From Acidimicrobiaceae bacterium (GTDB taxonomy: Bacteria > Actinomycetota > Acidimicrobiia > Acidimicrobiales > Aldehydirespiratoraceae): 64,000 nucleotides of DNA. Below are positions 3,134 through 12,762 of the stretch, piece by piece (the first letter of the stretch is position 1; each line of letters opens with the position of its first letter). The translations under genes were made by a program, and so were the position numbers. The stretch is from NCBI GenBank assembly GCA_009842325.1, contig VYFQ01000014.1, positions 194,026 to 258,025 of the forward strand. Reading direction: 5' to 3'. Below the pieces are notes generated by a model, which saw nothing but the letters and a program-made list of their open reading frames with translations, had not been told where the DNA came from and searched no databases.

Positions 3134-3195
3134 TTCGCTCCTGTTCGCTGCGCTCACGGGCCGCTCGGGCCACGGCCTCGCTAGCGCTCGGCCTC
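3134..3195. repeat. Copy 1 of a ~60 nt intergenic repeat lying just 5' of a minus-strand gene
   Basis: ttcgctcctgttcgctGcgctcacgggccgctcgggccacggcctcgcTagcGCtcggcctc is almost identical to 4414-4473. Confidence 0.85.
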
Positions 3196-3246
3196 AGGCA
3201 GGAACTTGAACCTCCGGAGTCTAGATTGCGACGAGGCTAGAGGTAG

Positions 3247-4407
3247 CTAGGAGAGCGTCGGCATGCAGAGGCCGTCGAGTTCGCCGACCTGGATGCGGTC
3301 CCGGTTGTCGTAGGTGACCTCGTTGGAGGGGTCGGGCCGCAGCTTGAACTCGCGGAAGCTCATCTCCAGAGCGTCGAAGGCCACCAGGCGGCCCCGCAGC
3401 GAGTCCCCCACTCCCAGGATCAGCTTGATGGCCTCCAGGGCCTGCACGCTGCCGACGATGCCGGGCAGCACGCCCAGCACTCCGGCCTCGGCGCAGCTCG
3501 GCGCCATCTCCGGCGGAGGGGGCTCGGGCAGCATGTCGCGGTAGGTGGGCCCGTTGCGGGGGTCGAACACGGTGACCTGGCCCTCGAAGCGGAAGATCGA
3601 CCCGTGTACCACCGGTATGCCGAGCTTCACTGAGGCGTCGTTGAGCAGGTAGCGGCTCGGGAAGTTGTCGGCCCCGTCGACCACCACGTCGTAGCCGTCG
3701 AGGATCTCCATGACGTTGTCGGCGCCGAGCCGGGCGTCGTAGGTGACGACGTTGACGTCGGGGTTCAGCGCGGTGAGGGTCTTCTTGGCCGAGTCGACCT
3801 TGCGGTCGCCCACCCGGTCGACGTTGTGCAGGACCTGGCGCTGGAGGTTGGACTCGTCGACCACGTCCATGTCGATGATGCCGATGGTGCCCACTCCCGC
3901 GGCCGCGAGGTACAGCGCCGCCGGGGAGCCGAGACCTCCCGCGCCGAGCAGCAGGACCTTGGCGTCGAGCAGCTTGAGCTGCCCGTCCTCGCCCACCTCG
4001 GGCACCAGCAGGTGGCGCTGGTAGCGGTTGCGCTGATCGGGCGACAGGGTGCGGGGCCGCGCCCAGGCCCGGCCCTCGTCCTTCCACTTGTTGAAGCCGC
4101 CGTCCATGGACACCACGTCGGTGTAGCCCATCTGCTCGAGCGTCACCGCCGCGAAGGCGGAGCGCACGCCGCCCGCGCACATGGCCACCAGCGGGGTGGA
4201 CCGGTCGGACACGCGGTTCTCGATGCTCGACTCGAGCTGGCCCCGCGGGATGTGCACGGAGCCGGCGATGGCTCCCTGCTCGTACTCGTCGGGCTCGCGC
4301 ACGTCGAGCAGGGTCCAGCCCTCGCTCAGCAGCTGCTCGCCGCCGGCGGTGTCGACCTCGCGGATCTCGGCCTTGGCCTGCTGCAATAGTTCTCTGAAGC
4401 TCGCCAT
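3247..4407 (-). CDS. Rhodanese-ThiF/MoeB-family adenylyltransferase/sulfurtransferase (MoeZ-like, but with the rhodanese domain N-terminal)
   Basis: N-terminal rhodanese motif LLDVREPDEYEQGAIAGSVHIPRG. ThiF Rossmann motif LLLGAGGLGSPAALYLAAAGVGTIGIIDMDVVDESNLQRQ. Start placed at ATG 4407, because 4414-4437 belongs to the noncoding repeat; alternative start at 4437. Confidence 0.8.
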   Translation of the reverse strand: MASFRELLQQAKAEIREVDTAGGEQLLSEGWTLLDVREPDEYEQGAIAGSVHIPRGQLESSIENRVSDRSTPLVAMCAGGVRSAFAAVTLEQMGYTDVVSMDGGFNKWKDEGRAWARPRTLSPDQRNRYQRHLLVPEVGEDGQLKLLDAKVLLLGAGGLGSPAALYLAAAGVGTIGIIDMDVVDESNLQRQVLHNVDRVGDRKVDSAKKTLTALNPDVNVVTYDARLGADNVMEILDGYDVVVDGADNFPSRYLLNDASVKLGIPVVHGSIFRFEGQVTVFDPRNGPTYRDMLPEPPPPEMAPSCAEAGVLGVLPGIVGSVQALEAIKLILGVGDSLRGRLVAFDALEMSFREFKLRPDPSNEVTYDNRDRIQVGELDGLCMPTLS

Positions 4408-4413
4408 CGGTCG

Positions 4414-4473
4414 TTCGCTCCTGTTCGCTTCGCTCACGGGCCGCTCGGGCCACGGCCTCGCAAGCTCGGCCTC
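4414..4473. repeat. Copy 2 of the ~60 nt intergenic repeat
   Basis: Near-identical to 3134-3195. It lies immediately upstream of the rhodanese-ThiF start. Confidence 0.85.
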
Positions 4474-4528
4474 TGGCTAAACCCTACCTGTCTTGTCAGG
4501 ATTTAGCCACCCCAGCGAGGACCGGTGA

Positions 4529-5308
4529 CTAGTCGATGGGATCTAGCCCGCAGATCACCGGTAGCACTTCGCTGATGGAGCCGCCCACCAGCACGTCGGC
4601 CAGCGCGTCGAACTCGGTGGGCTCGCCGTTCACGATGACCAGGCCGGCCCCCGACTGCGCGGCCAGGGGGGCGGTCATGTTGATGGGCGACACGGCCAGC
4701 GTCGTGCCCACCGCCAGGAACAGGTCGCATTCCACGGCGGCCCGCTCGGCTCGGGCCAGGTCGACCGGGTTGAGGCTCTGGCCGAACGACACCGTGGCCG
4801 CTTTCAGGATCCATCCGCAAAGGGGGCACTGCGGGTCCGGCTCCCCGGCCCGCACCCGATCCAGAGCGACCTCGATGTCGTCGCGGTAGTCGCACGACAG
4901 GCACTGCACCTTGCGGGTCGTGCCGTGTATCTCGACCACCCGTTCGGGATCGCTGCCGGCCCGCTGGTGGAGCTCGTCCACGTTCTGGGTGATCAGCAGA
5001 TTGAGCTTGCCCCGCTGCTCCAGGTGGACTAGCGCTTCGTGGCCCCGGTTCGGCTCGACGTCAGCCCACAGCGCTCCAGAAGCCCGGCGGGCCCAGTTGC
5101 TGCGGCGCACTTCGGGATCCGACACGTAGACGTTGATGTTCGAGGCCCGCTCGGCCGCGGGATCGCGTGTCCATAGCCCCTTCGGACCCCGGAAGTCGGG
5201 CAGTCCGCTGTCGGTGGAGATGCCGGCCCCGGTGAGGACAGTGACGCGTTCGGCGGCATCGACCATCCGGCGGGCCGCGGCGACCGCGGCCGCAGCATCC
5301 GCGAGCAC
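4529..5308 (-). CDS. cobB: NAD-dependent protein deacetylase, Sir2 family
   Basis: GAGISTDSGLPDFRGPKGLW, ITQNVDELHQRAG, and the zinc Cys pairs CLSC...CPLC. GTG start at 5308. Confidence 0.85.
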   Translation of the reverse strand: MLADAAAAVAAARRMVDAAERVTVLTGAGISTDSGLPDFRGPKGLWTRDPAAERASNINVYVSDPEVRRSNWARRASGALWADVEPNRGHEALVHLEQRGKLNLLITQNVDELHQRAGSDPERVVEIHGTTRKVQCLSCDYRDDIEVALDRVRAGEPDPQCPLCGWILKAATVSFGQSLNPVDLARAERAAVECDLFLAVGTTLAVSPINMTAPLAAQSGAGLVIVNGEPTEFDALADVLVGGSISEVLPVICGLDPID

Positions 5309-6157: not shown

Positions 6158-7210
6158 GTGCACATGGAGCCCGGAATACCCACCGGTATCGACGACATCG
6201 ACGACGAATGGCTGTCGCACGCCATGGGTTCGCCGGTGCGGATCACCGGCATCGACGACATCGGGACCGGGGTCGGGATGATCGGCGCCATCTACCGGGC
6301 GACGCTGGAGGGTGACGGCCCCGACACCGTGGTCTTCAAGATGCCCGGCCTCGACGAGACGGCCCGCTTCACGGCCCAGATCCTGCGCCTCAACATCCGC
6401 GAGGTCGGCTTCTACCGGGAACTGGCCGCCGAGAGCCCCATCCGGGTCCCCCACTGCCACTTCGGTGCCGTCGATCCCGAAACCCACGAGTTCGTGCTGG
6501 TGCTGGAGGACGTGGGCTCGTACCGGGCCGTCAGCCAGATCGGGGGCATGGGCCGGGCCGACGCCGAGCAGGCCGTGGACGAGCTGGCCGCCTGGCACGC
6601 CCACTGGTGGGGCAAGGCCGACCCGATCGTGGAGCGCGGCACCGCGATGGCAATCCACGATCCCATCTACCCGATGCTGCTGCCGCCGGTGTTCTCCGAC
6701 GGCTGGGCCAAGGTCCGGGGGGCGATGAGCGTCCCCCGGGTCGTAGAGACGGTCGCCGACGGCTGGGTGGAGGCCCTGCCCGAGATGCTGGGGTCGCTGG
6801 CGACGACGCCGAGCACCCTGGTCCACGGCGACTACCGGGCCGACAACATGTTCTTCGACGACGACGGGCGGGTCGTGCTGCTCGACTTCCAGGTCATCGG
6901 CCAGTCCATGCCCGTGGGTGACCTGGCCTACTTCGTCACCGGGAGCCTCTCCCCCGCTACCGCCTCGGAGATCGAGCCGGGGCTGTACGAGCGCTGGCTG
7001 AGCGCCCTCGCATCGGAGGGGGCACCCGAGTCGGAGCTCGACGGGATGTGGGACATCTACCGCGGCGCGGTGCTGTTCTGCGTCTGCTACCCGATGATCG
7101 CCGGCGCGGGCATGGACCTCACCGACGAGCGCCAGCGGGGATTGCTGGAGGCCACCTTCGAGCGCTTCGAGCGGGCTGCCGACGAGCTGAGCCTGACGGA
7201 CCTGCTCTGA
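6158..7210 (+). CDS. Phosphotransferase-family (APH / ecdysteroid-kinase-like) protein
   Basis: Catalytic-loop signature LVHGDYRADNMFFDDDGRVVLLDFQ. Confidence 0.75.
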   Translation: MHMEPGIPTGIDDIDDEWLSHAMGSPVRITGIDDIGTGVGMIGAIYRATLEGDGPDTVVFKMPGLDETARFTAQILRLNIREVGFYRELAAESPIRVPHCHFGAVDPETHEFVLVLEDVGSYRAVSQIGGMGRADAEQAVDELAAWHAHWWGKADPIVERGTAMAIHDPIYPMLLPPVFSDGWAKVRGAMSVPRVVETVADGWVEALPEMLGSLATTPSTLVHGDYRADNMFFDDDGRVVLLDFQVIGQSMPVGDLAYFVTGSLSPATASEIEPGLYERWLSALASEGAPESELDGMWDIYRGAVLFCVCYPMIAGAGMDLTDERQRGLLEATFERFERAADELSLTDLL

Positions 7211-7320
7211 GCGGCTGCGACTCTCGCGCGGCGTTCTAGCCGGACCCCCTGAACGACAAGGCCAGCTCGACCAGGGTGCGCACGCCAAAGCCGGTACCGC
7301 CCTTGGAGATCTCGCCATCG
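7178..7320. repeat. Left direct repeat of the islet: the true 3' end of the kinase gene plus a decayed 3' remnant of pepA
   Basis: 7184-7210 matches 11254-11280, with one mismatch seen. 7254-7320 matches 11314-11380, with 5 mismatches in 67 nt by my count. On the minus strand 7254-7320 translates to DGEISKGGTGFGVRTLVELAL, which is the pepA C-terminus. Confidence 0.8.
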
Positions 7321-7400
7321 AGGGAATCCATGTGACACCGGTGATGCAAGGGTGATACTCTTTAGGCAGCCGGGTGAGCGACAATCGAGGAGAGTTGACC

Positions 7401-7667
7401 ATGAGTCAAACACCCGATGCTCCGGCTGCCTGGCCTGCCGAGCACAGCGAGACTAGCAGTTGGCTGATGCGCCTAGTCATGACCGAGAGATTCCAGATCA
7501 TCAACGCGATTGCGGCCGTGCCCCTCGTGGCGGTCTGCATCGCGATGCTGAACGGCAACTATCACCCTGTCGCCGTCGCCGTATTGTCGTGGCCGCTGTT
7601 GATTCCGATATGGGTCTTCGGCAGAAAACTCACCGGCAGGCCCGTCGTACGGACTCGCTCGCAATAA
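7401..7667 (+). CDS. Small two-helix membrane protein
   Basis: GAGGAG Shine-Dalgarno at 7387-7392, about 8 nt before ATG 7401. Hydrophobic segments IINAIAAVPLVAVCIAML and VAVAVLSWPLLIPIWVF. Confidence 0.4.
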   Translation: MSQTPDAPAAWPAEHSETSSWLMRLVMTERFQIINAIAAVPLVAVCIAMLNGNYHPVAVAVLSWPLLIPIWVFGRKLTGRPVVRTRSQ

Positions 7668-7890
7668 TCAGGTCGACTCGGCTGTTGAGAAGTTGCTCGT
7701 CGACGGCGGGGTGATCTGTGTCACCGGATTCGTGTGCAGCATTGTGCGCTTCAATGGCTGATCCCCAGACGTTTTCGGCGCGGGCCTGACCAACTGCTGC
7801 GGCGCGACAGTCCGATGACGAAGCGCCGCAGCCAGCCAGCACCAACAACAGGACTGCCCCCGGCACGGCAAGGTACCTACGTGTCGTCAA
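7630..7890 (-). CDS. Possible small lipoprotein
   Basis: TTG start gives (M)TTRRYLAVPGAVLLLVLAGCGASS, with lipobox LAGC. Short, and the start is uncertain. Confidence 0.3.
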   Translation of the reverse strand: MTTRRYLAVPGAVLLLVLAGCGASSSDCRAAAVGQARAENVWGSAIEAHNAAHESGDTDHPAVDEQLLNSRVDLIIASESVRRACR

Positions 7891-7974
7891 TAGTAGGGGT
7901 GGTTGGGCGGGGCCATTCCACGCCGGGTAAGCGTTCCGGTTGGCCCCGCCCAACGCTCCTTTTGAGCAGGGCAT

Positions 7975-8379
7975 CTAGCTGTGCGCCCAGCGCAGAACCT
8001 GTTCGCAGGCGACGTACGTGCCGCCAGCCGCGACCCCGCCAGCCACGGGGTTTCCTCCAGTCGCACCGGTCGCCGCCGATGCCGCGACCGTTGCGACGGT
8101 CGTGCATACGACGACGTGGTACCAGTGGCCGTGTGGAATGCCGCAGACCTGTGTCCACACCGGCCCATATATCGGTCGGCTGTAGTCGGGCCGCACGCCG
8201 GAATCTTGCGGGCCGCTGGGGGCGACCTGCGTAGTGTGGTAGCCAACTACGCCTTGGACGTAGCGGCCCTCACACTTGGTGTGAGCGGAGGCGGGTTCGG
8301 GGTCTACGGCAGCGTCCACGACGAGGCCAGCACCGGCCAGCGTCAACACCACTAGAAGGGCCAAGGTGACACGCAACAT
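7975..8379 (-). CDS. Secreted or membrane-anchored Cys-containing protein with a Gly/Ala-rich C-terminal hydrophobic region
   Basis: Signal peptide MLRVTLALLVVLTLAGAGLVV...ASA. Four Cys. C-terminus is TTVATVAASAATGATGGNPVAGGVAAGG. AT-rich upstream region. Confidence 0.45.
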   Translation of the reverse strand: MLRVTLALLVVLTLAGAGLVVDAAVDPEPASAHTKCEGRYVQGVVGYHTTQVAPSGPQDSGVRPDYSRPIYGPVWTQVCGIPHGHWYHVVVCTTVATVAASAATGATGGNPVAGGVAAGGTYVACEQVLRWAHS

Positions 8380-8521
8380 CAGTTCTGTGACTTTCTGCTT
8401 GCCGCTCACCCGGCGTCTGAAATAACTGTATAGCAAGAAATAAAGGAACCTGTCAACTCTTCATGACATTTTTGATCGAATGACTACGAATTGCTGAGCC
8501 AAGCTCCCTAGCGGGCATCAA

Positions 8522-8680
8522 GACGGACGGGTCGTGCTGCTCAACTTCCAGGTCATCGGCCAGTCCCATGCCGGTGGGCGACCTGGCCTACTTCGTCACC
8601 GGGAGCCTCTCCCCCGCCACCGCCTCGGAGATCGAGCAGTCGCTCTACGACGCTGACTCAGCGCCCTCGCATCGGAGGGC
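8522..8680 (+). pseudogene. Decayed internal fragment of the phosphotransferase gene
   Basis: Aligns to 6864-7022 with substitutions and a frame-disturbing indel (cagtcccatgccggtg versus cagtccatgcccgtg). The 84-aa track ORF 8568-8822 reads through it. Confidence 0.7.
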
Positions 8681-8818
8681 GACGCGCTCAGCCATGCGCC
8701 TCTCAGCCAAGAAGGGAGACGATCGGGCCGACCGTATCGTGGCGGAAGCCAACGCTACTGAGCTAGCTGGCGAGCTGAGGACCATGCTGACGTCCTGCGG
8801 TCGCACCGCCTTCAGCTG

Positions 8819-9859
8819 CTAGAGGACACCCTCACGAGCCAAGAGGCGAGTCTTCATGACACTGCCATAGCCCCACTTGCCGACATCCTGGGTCTTTCGG
8901 AATGTCTCATGGACAACGCGGTGGCAGGGAACCAGCAGCGGTACAGGGTTCCGTCTCATCGCTTCGCTCACCGGTCTGTATGCGTTGGGGCGTCCGATCA
9001 CCCGCGCAACATCTTTGTAGGTCCTCACTTCTCCACGAGGAATGCGAGTGGTGGCCAACAGAGCGTCCCTGTGGACCGGTGCGCTCGCTAGCGACGAGAG
9101 ATCGATTGGCACATCAGTGCGCCCTGCCTCTAACGCCGCTTGCACCTTCTTGACCAGCTTCGGATCGCGGTCGGGATCCGGTCCAACTTCCACATCAACG
9201 CCGATTTCATCACGCAGAAGGGCGACGAACCCGTTGGGATCCATGACTCCCCATTTGGATGCGCTCAGACCTGACTCGGGATCGCAGGCGAGGTCTCCAT
9301 CCTGTGCGACCCGCAAGGCTGAGACCCTCCCGCTGTGGTGGGCCACGAAGACGGACCCAAGAGGACTGTCCACCGCGAACCAGGCGTGGACCGGCACATG
9401 AACGCCCGTGCGACTGCCGCGCGAGCCATGCGGCAAGCGCATCGCCTTGTGGGCGCCGGAAGGGTCGGCCCTGGCAGTCTCGTTCCCGGCGGCGTTGAAC
9501 TCTCTCAGTAGGTGCTTGGCTTTGTCCGTCTCCATCGCGTCCACAGCCTCAAGCAGCTTGACTACGCCACCGATTACGATCGCAACATCGTGACGCTCAA
9601 TGCGCTCGTGGTGTGCCCATCGATGGCGCTCTTCTCGAAGTGTTCCCACTAGCTTCCTGATGACGCCGCGATCTGAAGTCGGGAACTGGCCACCGACCTG
9701 TTCCCAACGCTCGTCAATCACTCGCAACAAGTAGCTGGGATCGCCTGTGGAGTCCGCGCCCGCTGAGGTCATCGGCGTGTGACGTTGGACGAAGGGCTTG
9801 AGTCCTCTTGCCAGCAACTGTAAGGCCTCATCCACCCAGGTCCGGTTGCTCACATTCAC
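8819..9859 (-). CDS. Fusion protein: N-terminal Swt1-like HEPN domain plus a complete Ogt/MGMT-type methylated-DNA-protein-cysteine methyltransferase
   Basis: N-terminus has LLRVIDERWEQV...LREERHRWAHH (Rx4H) ...LLEAVDA. C-terminus has IPRGEVRTYKDVARVIGRPNAYRPVSEAMRRNPVPLLVPCHRVV (PCHR active site). The middle region resembles the Ogt N-terminal domain. Confidence 0.65.
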   Translation of the reverse strand: MNVSNRTWVDEALQLLARGLKPFVQRHTPMTSAGADSTGDPSYLLRVIDERWEQVGGQFPTSDRGVIRKLVGTLREERHRWAHHERIERHDVAIVIGGVVKLLEAVDAMETDKAKHLLREFNAAGNETARADPSGAHKAMRLPHGSRGSRTGVHVPVHAWFAVDSPLGSVFVAHHSGRVSALRVAQDGDLACDPESGLSASKWGVMDPNGFVALLRDEIGVDVEVGPDPDRDPKLVKKVQAALEAGRTDVPIDLSSLASAPVHRDALLATTRIPRGEVRTYKDVARVIGRPNAYRPVSEAMRRNPVPLLVPCHRVVHETFRKTQDVGKWGYGSVMKTRLLAREGVL

Positions 9860-9941
9860 CGTTCAGACTCCTCTCGTGGCGACCGCCGACTGGAACCCTA
9901 GGCGTCGACCATGACGCGAGGCTCTAGGACAGACCCACAAG

Positions 9942-10505
9942 ATGCAGTCGCCGTTGGCGAGCAACAGCAAGAAGCTGAACGCCGGAAGGGGTCCGGTCGG
10001 CAAGACCGCCGTCGTCGGTGCCCGCGACCGGGCGACGGGCCACGTCGCGGCTCAGGTCATCGACTCGGTGGACGCCGAAACGCTGCAAGGGTTCGTCACC
10101 GACCGCACCGCGGAGGGTGCCCGCGTGTTCACCGACGGTGAAGCCGCCTATCGGGGCCTGCCCCGCCGTTCTTCGGTGTCGCATTCGACCGGCGAGTACG
10201 TCCGCCGGGAGGGCAAGGTCAAGGTCCACACCAACGAGATCGAGTCGCTGTGGTCCACGCTGAAGCGGGCGCACAAGGGCGTCTACTACCGCCTGTCCGC
10301 CAAGCACCTACAGCGCTATGTGGACTCGTTCGCTGCGAAGCGCAACATCCGCGACGCGGACACCATCGACCAGATGGCCGCGGTGGTGGCGTCGATGTTC
10401 GGCCGGGAGATCACCTACGACAAGCTGATCGCCGGGGATCGAGGCTTGGCCGTGGATGAGTTCCTCACGTTGGTAGGGGGTAGAAAATATACAACCGCAT
10501 CCTGA
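9942..10505 (+). mobile_element. N-terminally truncated IS1595-family (ISXO2-like DDE) transposase remnant
   Basis: SKKLNAGRGPVGKTAVVGARDRATGHVAAQVI...TLQGFV...HTNEIESLWSTLKRAHKGVYYRLSAKHLQRYVDSFAAKRN. The zinc-ribbon N-terminus and the first part of the DDE domain are missing. Confidence 0.7.
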
Positions 10506-10517
10506 TACGGAGGACAG

Positions 10518-11147
10518 ATGACCACTAAGGCGCAGCGCCGCCAGCGAGATCGTCTCCTGGATCAGCAGAATGGTCTGTGCGGGATCTGTTGGCTCCCCAT
10601 TAGCGACCAGGCCAAGGCAAGCAAGAACTACGAAAGAGAGCACATTCTGCCGAAGGTCTGGTATCGCGATTTGAGCATGGAAGGCAAGGACGACGTGTCC
10701 AATCTGCAAGCAGCGCACAAGGCATGCGGACAGATGAAAGATCGGGAGTGGCTGCCCTGGAACAGACATCTATTGGCCGCCGTGACGAGTTTTGGAGAGA
10801 TGCCCGGACCAGATACCTCAGCTTCTTTGATCCCATACTTGGCCGTATATCGCAGCGAGCAGTACCTGATATCGCCTCCGACAATGGAAGATCCCGGGTT
10901 CCGCCAATGGCTCGACACTGAACCGCGAAGGTCGTGGCGCACAAACTCCTACCGCGCCTGGAACGACCAGGCTGAGTTCATGTACAGAAGGGCTATAGAT
11001 CATTATGTAGCTCGACAGCCCGTGCATGACCTCACCGGCATCCAGCCCATGTCTTGGGAAACGTGGGAAGCCACCGTGGAGTTGTCGCCCGGACTTGATG
11101 GATTTGTGATGAGTCGCATCCCCGGAACCACCAGGAAGGGACCATGA
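10518..11147 (+). CDS. HNH endonuclease-domain protein
   Basis: CGICWLPI...EREHILPK...NLQAAHKACGQMK. GGAGGA Shine-Dalgarno before ATG 10518. Visibly lower G+C than its surroundings. Confidence 0.65.
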   Translation: MTTKAQRRQRDRLLDQQNGLCGICWLPISDQAKASKNYEREHILPKVWYRDLSMEGKDDVSNLQAAHKACGQMKDREWLPWNRHLLAAVTSFGEMPGPDTSASLIPYLAVYRSEQYLISPPTMEDPGFRQWLDTEPRRSWRTNSYRAWNDQAEFMYRRAIDHYVARQPVHDLTGIQPMSWETWEATVELSPGLDGFVMSRIPGTTRKGP

Positions 11148-11260
11148 AGGTTGAGCAGCGCAGCGTGCCTGTCCGCGATCTCGTGGACGGCTACAGCGAT
11201 GACGGTGCTGGGGGCGTGGTCGGCTACGGTCGCCTACTGGATATCCGTCCGCCGAGCTGA
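11144..11260 (+). pseudogene. 38-codon stump of a gene truncated at the islet/repeat junction (N-terminus resembles ParB/DUF262-type nuclease-associated proteins)
   Basis: ATGA overlap with the HNH stop. MKVEQRSVPVRDLVDGYSDDGAGGVVGYGRLLDIRPPS then stops inside the right direct repeat. Family assignment is from memory only. Confidence 0.3.
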
Positions 11261-11380
11261 GCCTGACTGACCTGCTCTGAGTCCCGCCCTTTGGCTCAGT
11301 TGCTCGAGGTGTACGACAAAGCGAGCTCGACCAGGGTGCGCACGCCGAAGCCGGTGCCGCCCTTGGAGATCTCGCCGTCG
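11248..11380. repeat. Right direct repeat of the islet: remnant of the kinase 3' end plus the true pepA 3' end
   Basis: See 7178-7320. 11254-11280 encodes ELSLTDLL-stop, which is the kinase C-terminus. Confidence 0.8.
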
Positions 11381-12762
11381 TCCGACTCGGCCCGGGCCGG
11401 ACCGGCGATGTCGAGGTGGGCCCAGGGGATGCCGTCGGCCACGAACTGCTGCAGGATCAACCCCGCGGTCAGAGCGCCCCCGTGGGTGCCGCCGATGTTC
11501 TTCATGTCGGCCACGTTCGACTCGAACTGCTTGGCGTAGTCGGCGGGCAGCGGCAGCGGCCACACCCGCTCCCCGGCGCGGTCCGCGGCGGCGCGGATCT
11601 CATCGATCAGCGGCTCGTCGTTCCCCATCAACCCCGCGATGGAGGGACCCAGCGCCACCATGCAGGCGCCGGTGAGGGTGGCCAGGTCGACGATGGCGTC
11701 GGGTTCGTCCTCGCAGGCCAGCGACAGGGCGTCGGCCAGGATCAGCCGGCCCTCGGCATCGGTGTTGAGCACCTCGATGGTCTTGCCGTTGCGGATGGTG
11801 AGAACGTCGCCGGGCCGGGTGGCGTCGCCGCCGAGCATGTTGTCGGTCATGGGCAGGTACCCCTTGACCCGGACGGGCGCGCCGACCGCGGGCAGCACCG
11901 ACATGGCCCCGATGATCGCCGCGGCCCCGCACATGTCCATCTTCATGGCCATCATTCCCTGGGCGGTCTTGATGGACAGGCCTCCGGCGTCGAACGTGAT
12001 CCCCTTGCCCACGTAGGCCAGCGTCGCGGCGGGGTCGTCCGCGGGCTCGTAGGTCAACTCCACGTAGCGCGGCGGATGGGTGCTGCCCCGGTTGACGCCG
12101 AGCAGGCCGCCGAGCCGCTGCTTCTTGATCTCCGCCTCGTTCCAGACCCTCGACTTCAGTCCGGCCTTGCGGGCGACGGCCGCAGCCTTGCGGGCGAAGG
12201 CCGGGGCAGTGAGCGAGCCGCCGGGCTCGTTGGACAGGTCGCGGGCCACGCACACCCCCGCGGCGATGGTGGAGCCCCGGGCCAGGGCGTTCTTGGCCGC
12301 GGCCGATGTGCTTCCCACCACGTCGACCCTGGCCAGCTTGGGAGCGCCGTTGCCGCCGCTGGAGCCGTCGGCGGACGACTTGTAGACGGTGTAGCGGTAG
12401 CCGCCCAGGATCACGCCCTCGGCGAGCGCCTGACGGGCGGCGTCGTCGTCCAAGTCGGAATCGGCGGGAAGCCGCACCGCTGCCCGTGCGTGACGCGAGC
12501 ACGAGCGAGCCAGCGCCGCGCCGGCTCGCCGGACGGTGGCCGCGGTGACTTCGGCAGCCGGGCCGACGCCGACCAGCCCGGCGAAGCCGCCGCCGGCCGG
12601 CTGCAGATGGACCTGCTCCGCCTTGCCCCTGAACCCGGTGGTGTCCAAGACCGCCGCGTCGAAACCGTCTATGCCAGCTTCGACATCCTCGGCGGTGACA
12701 AGAGAAACACTGGCGGTGGCCGCCTTGGGCACGGAGCGAACTGCATGGACTGTGATCGGCAT
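11296..12762 (-). CDS. pepA: Leucyl aminopeptidase (M17)
   Basis: NTDAEGRLILADAL, VGKGITFDAGGLSIK, DMCGAAA. Confidence 0.9.
   Translation of the reverse strand: MPITVHAVRSVPKAATASVSLVTAEDVEAGIDGFDAAVLDTTGFRGKAEQVHLQPAGGGFAGLVGVGPAAEVTAATVRRAGAALARSCSRHARAAVRLPADSDLDDDAARQALAEGVILGGYRYTVYKSSADGSSGGNGAPKLARVDVVGSTSAAAKNALARGSTIAAGVCVARDLSNEPGGSLTAPAFARKAAAVARKAGLKSRVWNEAEIKKQRLGGLLGVNRGSTHPPRYVELTYEPADDPAATLAYVGKGITFDAGGLSIKTAQGMMAMKMDMCGAAAIIGAMSVLPAVGAPVRVKGYLPMTDNMLGGDATRPGDVLTIRNGKTIEVLNTDAEGRLILADALSLACEDEPDAIVDLATLTGACMVALGPSIAGLMGNDEPLIDEIRAAADRAGERVWPLPLPADYAKQFESNVADMKNIGGTHGGALTAGLILQQFVADGIPWAHLDIAGPARAESDDGEISKGGTGFGVRTLVELALSYTSSN

Follow-up and report, generated by a model that had tools for sequence, protein, structure and literature searches.

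How can a handful of small accessory genes settle between two convergent genes, leave both of them whole and end up bracketed by long copies of their joined 3' ends, with no recombinase in the inserted DNA? This question is raised by an islet in a 64,000-nucleotide stretch of contig VYFQ01000014.1 (the whole stretch is hereafter called the window), which belongs to the metagenome-assembled genome of an Acidimicrobiia bacterium of the genus Candidatus Aldehydirespirator. The contigs of its closest relatives are of sponge and marine metagenome origin, and the host is an uncultured sponge symbiont. On the left of the islet lies an intact gene for an APH/EcKL-type kinase (6158..7210, + strand; 350 aa; Pfam PF02958 and PF01636), which gene callers start at the ATG at 6164 (348 aa) and whose stop codon occupies 7208-7210. 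On its right lies an intact pepA gene coding for an M17 leucyl aminopeptidase (11296..12762, - strand; 488 aa; Pfam PF00883 and PF02789). A first-pass annotation of the window, made from the letters alone, had described the islet as a single old and immobilised element that integrated at the junction of these two genes and is delimited by attL/attR-like repeats.

A duplicated gene junction and its empty site

Direct-repeat comparison within the window recovers both repeat pairs where they had first been placed, with 94% identity between 7179-7211 and 11249-11281 and 92% identity between 7250-7320 and 11310-11380; the 29-nt core of the former pair, with 1 mismatch, has a chance expectation of 0.00 in shuffled sequence. 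The repeats had been put at about 140 bp, which proved too short: a third piece matches kinase positions 6863-7020 to 8522-8679 with 92-96% identity, and the duplicated unit comes to at least 458 bp, comprising the kinase 3' end, the kinase stop codon, the spacer and the last 27 codons of pepA. The left copy (6863..7320) is uninterrupted and collinear with the single-copy junction of relatives; it consists of the kinase 3' end (to 7210), a 25-nt spacer (7211-7235) and a dead pepA tail (7236..7320, - strand; the last 27 codons and the stop), so that it runs outward into the intact kinase gene and ends within pepA. The right copy begins within the kinase with a dead internal fragment (8522..8679, + strand, equivalent to 6863-7020), whose frame is broken by one +1 and one -1 indel. 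There follow 2,569 bp (8680-11248) that replace 158 bp, and the copy resumes at 11249-11380 with a dead kinase tail (11249..11281, + strand, equivalent to 7179-7211) and the right spacer plus the live 3' end of pepA (11282..11380), continuing outward into the intact pepA gene. Both copies align to the single junction of the relatives, and no further copy of the repeat was found in the window's own genome. The duplication of the target junction, with its dead pepA tail and dead kinase tail, is thus as it had been described.

Related genomes provide the empty site that the first-pass annotation had anticipated. In 26 of the 26 congeners that have the kinase gene, it is directly convergent on pepA, and the gap between the two holds either a 15-25-nt spacer or 1-3 copies of an element of ~60 nt; relative to this empty site the islet is an insertion. 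The expected difference in composition is also present, the G+C content being 0.56-0.65 in the islet as against 0.68-0.75 in the flanks. Exact-protein look-ups returned 19 contigs for the HEPN-MGMT fusion protein encoded in the islet, 21 for pepA and 13 for the kinase, and every one of them carries the islet. These conspecific contigs derive from several studies and assemblers (ENA, NCBI and Logan) and are mostly 99.9-100% identical over 5-17 kb. The kinase gene itself is accessory in the genus: it is missing from L022 (G007), L023 (G005) and G024, where a 208-aa gene is followed almost at once by pepA.

The absence of an integrase, likewise part of the earlier description, holds over a wider search. 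No recombinase is present among the ORFs of the islet or in any conspecific contig. Six-frame searches matched the tyrosine recombinase domain (PF00589) on three other contigs of the genome only and not on this one, and did not detect the serine recombinase domain (PF00239) anywhere in the genome.

The core cargo and a second islet

The part of the islet next to the left repeat is a core cargo of 1.2 kb (7321..8521) with three small membrane/exported-protein genes, as given by the ORF list: ORF1, a small membrane protein (7374/7402-7667, + strand); ORF2, a 114-aa lipoprotein-like protein (7630-7974, - strand); and ORF3, a 153-aa exported protein (7975-8436, - strand). An AT-rich stretch (8437-8521) completes it. 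None of the cargo ORFs has a match in Pfam, PHROG, PADLOC or NCBIfam, and at the DNA level the core (7321-8521) matches nothing in 38 other species of the genus, the only hit of that search being in its own genome. A search with the 153-aa cargo protein, however, uncovered a second islet, here called L114, in a distant congener. The flanks of L114 are 92-93% identical to those of L082, L083 and L086, all of which have the empty site, as against ~80-84% to those of the window. Its order is kinase, spacer, dead pepA tail, cargo, complete dead kinase 3' fragment, spacer and pepA; its cargo shows 80% nucleotide identity to 7321-8440 of the window, and its direct repeats, 573 nt long and 87% identical, have the same topology.

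Given the structure of the L114 islet, the original duplication was at least 570 bp. The inner ends of the repeats differ between the two loci: relative to L114, the repeats of the window are trimmed at both inner ends, having lost ~50 nt of the kinase fragment, and ~52 nt of the pepA tail together with ~108 nt adjoining it. The L114 islet has no recombinase and nothing equivalent to 8680-11248; its dead kinase fragment is continuous at this place. As L114 lacks any counterpart of this 2.57-kb block, the block is a secondary insertion, and the islet, which had been taken for one element, is instead a composite of a 1.2-kb core and a later 2.57-kb insertion. The core cargo is devoid of a mobility gene in both the window and L114, an IS1595 fragment in the window being confined to the secondary insertion.

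Comparison of the window with L114 also bears on the age of the cargo. The dN/dS values are 0.28 for ORF2 and 0.35 for ORF3, and the dS values of the cargo ORFs (0.36 and 0.61) are like those of the flanks (kinase 0.33, pepA 0.42, Ku 0.37 and LigD-Pol 0.48). Because of this similarity in dS and the low dN/dS, the cargo genes are functional and under purifying selection, and their age is close to that of the divergence of the two host clades.

An inverted repeat of 16 nt, GCCGGGTGAGCG(A/G)CAA, is found at 7369-7384 and 8399-8414 and is kept in L114. It overlaps the GTG starts of both inward-facing cargo units (ORF1 and ORF3) and may represent a shared leader or operator. It is the only conserved inverted repeat in the islet, lies inside the cargo and has no flanking duplication. 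Beyond the genus, the ORF2 family has 2-7 copies per genome in all five of the five searched genomes of a sister genus, g18 (G076, G149, G248, G366 and G431), and is rare in the order outside g18; a scan of JGI metagenome contigs with an ORF2 alignment found nothing. Remote relatives of the cargo trio lie beside a tyrosine integrase in L116 and L117, and beside a serine-recombinase fragment in L111, in an island with 66-nt direct repeats. In another genome (L131) a remote relative of the trio stands between IS30-type and IS481-type transposases. The 4-kb insert there is bracketed by direct repeats of 392 nt (4181-4572 / 8633-9024) that are 85% identical and comprise a TetR gene 3' end, with the same topology as in the window at a different convergent gene pair. 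L131 gives a bare hint that this cargo travels by a route of repeat-flanked insertion.

Allelic make-up of the repeats and a proposed mechanism of insertion

The two copies of the junction were then compared with the alleles of congeners, using as informative sites the positions at which L062, the closest relative of the window by identity, differs from a shared state of L063, L065 and L067. Four segments can be distinguished. The left kinase end is 95-99% identical to L062, agrees with it at 14 of the 16 informative sites and remains sister-like right up to the stop codon. The left spacer and dead pepA tail are of the L063/G018 type, with the same length as in L063 (137 nt from the kinase-tail motif to the pepA motif), the encoded C-terminus being ...LSFRGSG* vs ...LSFSSSG* in L063. 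The right dead kinase fragment carries the motif of L063, L065 and L067 (GAGCAGTCGCTC...CTCAGC), agrees with this type at 4-5 of 7 sites and shows an identity of 97% to L065 vs 92% to L062. The right spacer and pepA are 97-99% identical to L062, with the C-terminus ...LSYTSSN* that is typical of L062 and L087. Alleles thus switch near the kinase stop codon in both repeat copies, and the outer halves of the repeats would be of resident type and the inner halves of foreign type. The spacer between the homology blocks, once thought to have diverged completely, turns out to be two alleles of a 15-25-nt spacer plus the last five pepA codons, both of which occur in other species (the left one as the L063/G018 type and the right one as the L062/L087 type). 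For L114 the same four-segment test gives no classification, as its spacers have diverged too far from those of every relative sampled.

The dead parts of the repeats are young, unlike the cargo. The dead pepA tail has three unique substitutions, all of them synonymous in the pepA frame, which therefore date from a time when this sequence still coded for protein; the dead kinase fragment differs by only 3% from the living allele of L065. On these grounds, homologous exchange with other congeners has renewed or overwritten the arms in recent times. The description of the islet as old and immobilised can accordingly be kept for the cargo, with its dS of 0.36-0.61, and has to be given up for the dead repeat parts, which are 97% identical to the living kinase allele. 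Exchange of this kind is also apparent elsewhere in the kinase gene: the conspecific L042 differs from the window by 26 substitutions clustered within 237 nt (6421-6657), and its tract shows 95.7% identity to L075, which belongs to the other major clade of the genus. This tract is a short inter-clade recombination import, and it indicates that homologous recombination with divergent congeners occurs at this gene.

In light of the allelic pattern, we propose that the islet arose when a junction-bearing molecule integrated by Campbell-type homologous recombination (single-crossover or ends-in), with secondary insertions and trimming coming afterwards, an explanation that we hold to be somewhat better than an even bet. 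The incoming DNA would have carried the three-gene cargo along with the kinase-3'/pepA-3' junction in the form that it had in a related Candidatus Aldehydirespirator lineage, either as a circle or as a linear piece with both ends inside the junction. A single host-mediated homologous crossover between this molecule and the resident junction, located at or close to the final ~30-190 nt of the kinase gene, would leave both genes intact and yield two chimeric junction copies: on the left, the resident kinase end joined to the foreign spacer and dead pepA tail, and on the right, the foreign dead kinase fragment joined to the resident spacer and live pepA. The four-segment pattern is exactly what one such reciprocal crossover predicts. 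The dead kinase fragment could then have served as a safe landing place, in which 2.57 kb (HEPN-MGMT, an IS1595 that subsequently decayed, and an HNH operon) replaced 158 bp; later still, a 3-kb IS1595-family transposon would have entered the cargo in some strains, and small deletions would have trimmed the inner ends of both repeats.

Several points weigh against this proposal. The foreign label of the right kinase fragment depends mainly on one 23-nt motif and on overall identity, and the fragment has the resident state at two informative sites (6964 and 7196), on account of which none of the species sampled is the donor. The window is mosaic in its identity to relatives over its whole length, and the relatives are mosaic too, a caveat on the allele test, as recombination imports could mimic a reciprocally chimeric pattern. 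The agreement of cargo dS (0.36-0.61) with flank dS (0.33-0.48) between the window and L114 also fits long vertical residence. No conspecific empty site was found in the exact-protein look-ups with pepA and the kinase. Finally, the origin of a molecule that joins the cargo to a copy of the junction is left unexplained by any of the readings considered here.

The main competitor, which we judge rather unlikely, is an in-situ tandem duplication of the convergent junction, the cargo being captured at the new joint by an ancestor early in the history of the genus. Vertical descent would have been accompanied by many scarless losses through the repeats and by imports from islet-free relatives that spared the inner repeat edges. 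Such a duplication would have been neutral, since both genes stay whole, and it accords with the equal dS of cargo and flanks, with purifying selection on the cargo and with the position of the two islets in a locus tree over 7.2 kb (midpoint root; L062 left out as too short), in which the window groups with L064 and L114 falls on the opposite side of the root. The kinase gene has indeed received short imports from divergent congeners, the mosaic identity to relatives extends all along the window, and imports from islet-free donors would hardly cover the inner repeat edges, so that an edge effect is to be expected. However, about ten or more independent losses would be needed on the locus tree, and the dead parts are young rather than ancient relics, so that each must have been replaced separately. 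Moreover, an in-situ duplication predicts two resident copies, and two foreign imports of the same class have to be invoked where one crossover suffices. Both this account and integration by a single crossover rest on homologous recombination by the host; they differ on whether the islet has moved.

A different class of explanation is a site-specific element that entered the kinase 3' end with a replacement gene end, thereby creating attL and attR, and later lost its integrase. The topology resembles that of elements integrating at gene 3' ends, and the remote cargo relatives beside a tyrosine integrase (L116 and L117) or a serine-recombinase fragment (L111) lend slight support to such an origin; yet neither a recombinase nor a remnant of one was found in the window islet, in L114 or in the conspecific contigs, and the inner ends of the repeats differ between the window and L114. 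The repeats themselves are 458-573 bp of ordinary coding sequence with 87-96% identity and no identical core, and the element would have left a foreign kinase end on the left and a resident fragment on the right, the reverse of what is seen. Host-like sequence on both sides of the crossover likewise marks a homologous rather than a site-specific exchange. The att-site/integrase reading of the first-pass annotation, being contradicted on two defining features, was rejected, and we regard it as improbable. A transposon or composite IS element was also set aside, the islet ends having neither terminal inverted repeats nor a short target duplication. An assembly chimera of two strain alleles might be suspected, given that the genome is metagenome-assembled and that the repeat copies are different alleles; but the same structure recurs over 7-17 kb in contigs of different samples, studies and assemblers, and L114, from another species, has the same architecture. 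As independent assemblies agree on the structure, an assembly artefact was rejected, and we accord it virtually no likelihood.

Returning to integration by homologous crossover, it is conceivable, if rather doubtful, that the islet is a self-propagating, recombinase-free mobile unit that uses a copy of its chromosomal target as portable homology arms. Such a unit would loop out by recombination of the two repeats that flank it, move on to a different Aldehydirespirator lineage and enter the intact kinase-pepA junction there, with each passage re-making the arms from living alleles while the cargo stays old. If true, this would explain the combination of old cargo and young arms, the occurrence of the islet in two distant clades with empty sites between them, and the architecture of L131.

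Relation to known systems and later insertions

The architecture of the islet is one that has already been described as insertion with long target duplication, and does not constitute a new principle. It was reportedly treated under this name by Nobusato et al. in 2000 (Gene 259:99). A survey of restriction-modification genes described inserts whose target is single in a relative, with repeats of tens to ~420 bp and no mobility genes, listed an actinobacterial case in Clavibacter, and proposed a cycle in which such DNA inserts, makes use of its repeats and is released again (Furuta et al. 2010, PMC2853133). The present islet shares with those cases an insert that is missing in relatives with a single target, two repeats that both align to this target and are imperfect and variable in length, a position at gene 3' ends, and the lack of a responsible integrase or transposase. 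Its duplication varies in length, with 573 bp in L114 and no less than 458 bp in the window, and lies beyond both the sizes of transposon and att-core duplications and a bound of 30 bp. It differs in having three small membrane/exported-protein genes as cargo in place of restriction-modification genes, in its longer repeats (458-573 bp) that are 8-13% diverged and represent two species-level alleles, in its presence in two distant lineages of one genus, and in the conversion of one repeat copy into a landing pad. What is particular here is therefore a cargo other than restriction-modification genes, repeats that are unusually long and diverged, their two species-level alleles, the simpler form of the islet in a second lineage and the use of a dead half as a landing pad.

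The locus offers a base-by-base view of the way in which small accessory genes are acquired and retained, with no dedicated mobility enzyme, by a sponge symbiont that is uncultured. The neighbouring genes stay intact, and the dead repeat halves would act as neutral landing pads for defence-type genes and insertion sequences; the whole unit could in principle be lost or passed on by ordinary recombination. With an old cargo and young arms in two lineages, it could serve as a test case for the life cycle of insertions with long target duplication, which has so far been argued mostly for restriction-modification genes.

Campbell-type insertion-duplication, in which a non-replicating circle carrying a chromosomal fragment integrates, is a laboratory method in streptococci and Bacillus. 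The islet resembles its products in what would be a single homologous crossover, with duplicated homology on either side, chimeric copies and no element-encoded recombinase, and in that the copies in both the window and L114 are continuous with their own flank and truncated inward; it differs in that the circle, the donor and the route of transfer are here hypothetical. In nature, cfr(C) of Campylobacter coli provides an example, with a circular intermediate that is pcp-mediated (PMC10770853). The H47 island of Escherichia coli has extensive imperfect direct repeats and no recombinase, and its mobility, shown experimentally without RecA, points to host site-specific or RecA-independent functions (PMC3191183; PMC5426353). 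It is comparable in being a small island with long imperfect direct repeats that lacks a recombinase, and it recombines in segments of identity within these repeats; however, the repeats of H47 did not arise from gene ends of its target, and mobility there is a matter of experiment, whereas the present case is known from comparative data. In the minimal mobile elements of Neisseria, small cassettes without mobility genes are exchanged between conserved genes by homologous recombination (Saunders and Snyder 2002; PMC1797815; PMC3787668). The arrangement between conserved genes and the absence of mobility genes are shared, but the neisserial elements are alternative cassettes at one site, with flanking gene ends that are not duplicated. 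Alternative cassettes were not encountered at the kinase-pepA site, relatives being empty or having the ~60-nt element and L114 having the same cargo.

To look for further insertions of this type, the window's own assembly was scanned for direct repeats of at least 84% identity, 60-1,100 bp in length and 0.3-25 kb apart. This gave 21 pairs, of which three were inspected: those on contigs C26 and C29 are tandem paralogues and that on contig C12 is a toxin-antitoxin fragment, doubly truncated, none of the three having a clean insertion-duplication topology. On C12 (L132) the direct repeats are 354 nt long (100735-101087 / 107566-107919) and 92% identical; they comprise the final part of a toxin-like ORF together with the beginning of a ribbon-helix-helix antitoxin, with the second copy truncated at both ends, and bracket a 6.5-kb insert that encodes an aspartyl-protease-like protein and a 1,660-aa Mrr-ResIII helicase.

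The secondary insertion of the islet (8680..11248) contains, according to Pfam, a HEPN_Swt1-MGMT fusion gene (8819-9859, - strand), a fragment coding for the C-terminus of an IS1595 transposase (9942-10505, + strand) and an HNH gene (10518-11147, + strand); translation further reveals a 38-codon ORF that reads into the kinase tail (11144-11260, + strand). In congeners, 8680-11248 has matches only at the level of IS copies and ogt paralogues. The HNH protein bears a weak resemblance to PtuB, below any cut-off. The 38-codon ORF might be a truncated larger gene, but its only relative (L130, 83%) is interrupted at the identical position and gives no guidance. In the conspecific assemblies L049 and L055 (GCA_009837475.1 and GCA_009845195.1), gene calls give the HEPN-MGMT gene a length of 141 aa, which corresponds to just the MGMT part, and the fusion gene would thus seem to be broken or differently started in some strains.

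The islet is still gaining elements. In the conspecific L042, L043 and L060, a site in the cargo that is empty in the window (CGACAGTC, 7805..7812) is occupied by an IS1595-family transposon of 3,049 bp (10056-13104 in L042), which is bounded by perfect terminal inverted repeats of 17 bp (GGTGACTACTTACGTGT) with a target duplication of 8 bp (CGACAGTC), and carries as passengers genes for an SLH-domain protein and an Fn3-like protein along with small ORFs; this element is absent from the window's own genome. The ~60-nt repeat element occurs twice in the window, at 3134-3199 and 4414-4477, and is present in the kinase-pepA spacers of L062, L064, L067, L068, L073, L082 (three copies), L084 and L085. 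Because it occupies this spacer in so many congeners, the kinase-pepA spacer is likely to be a general insertion hot spot in the genus.

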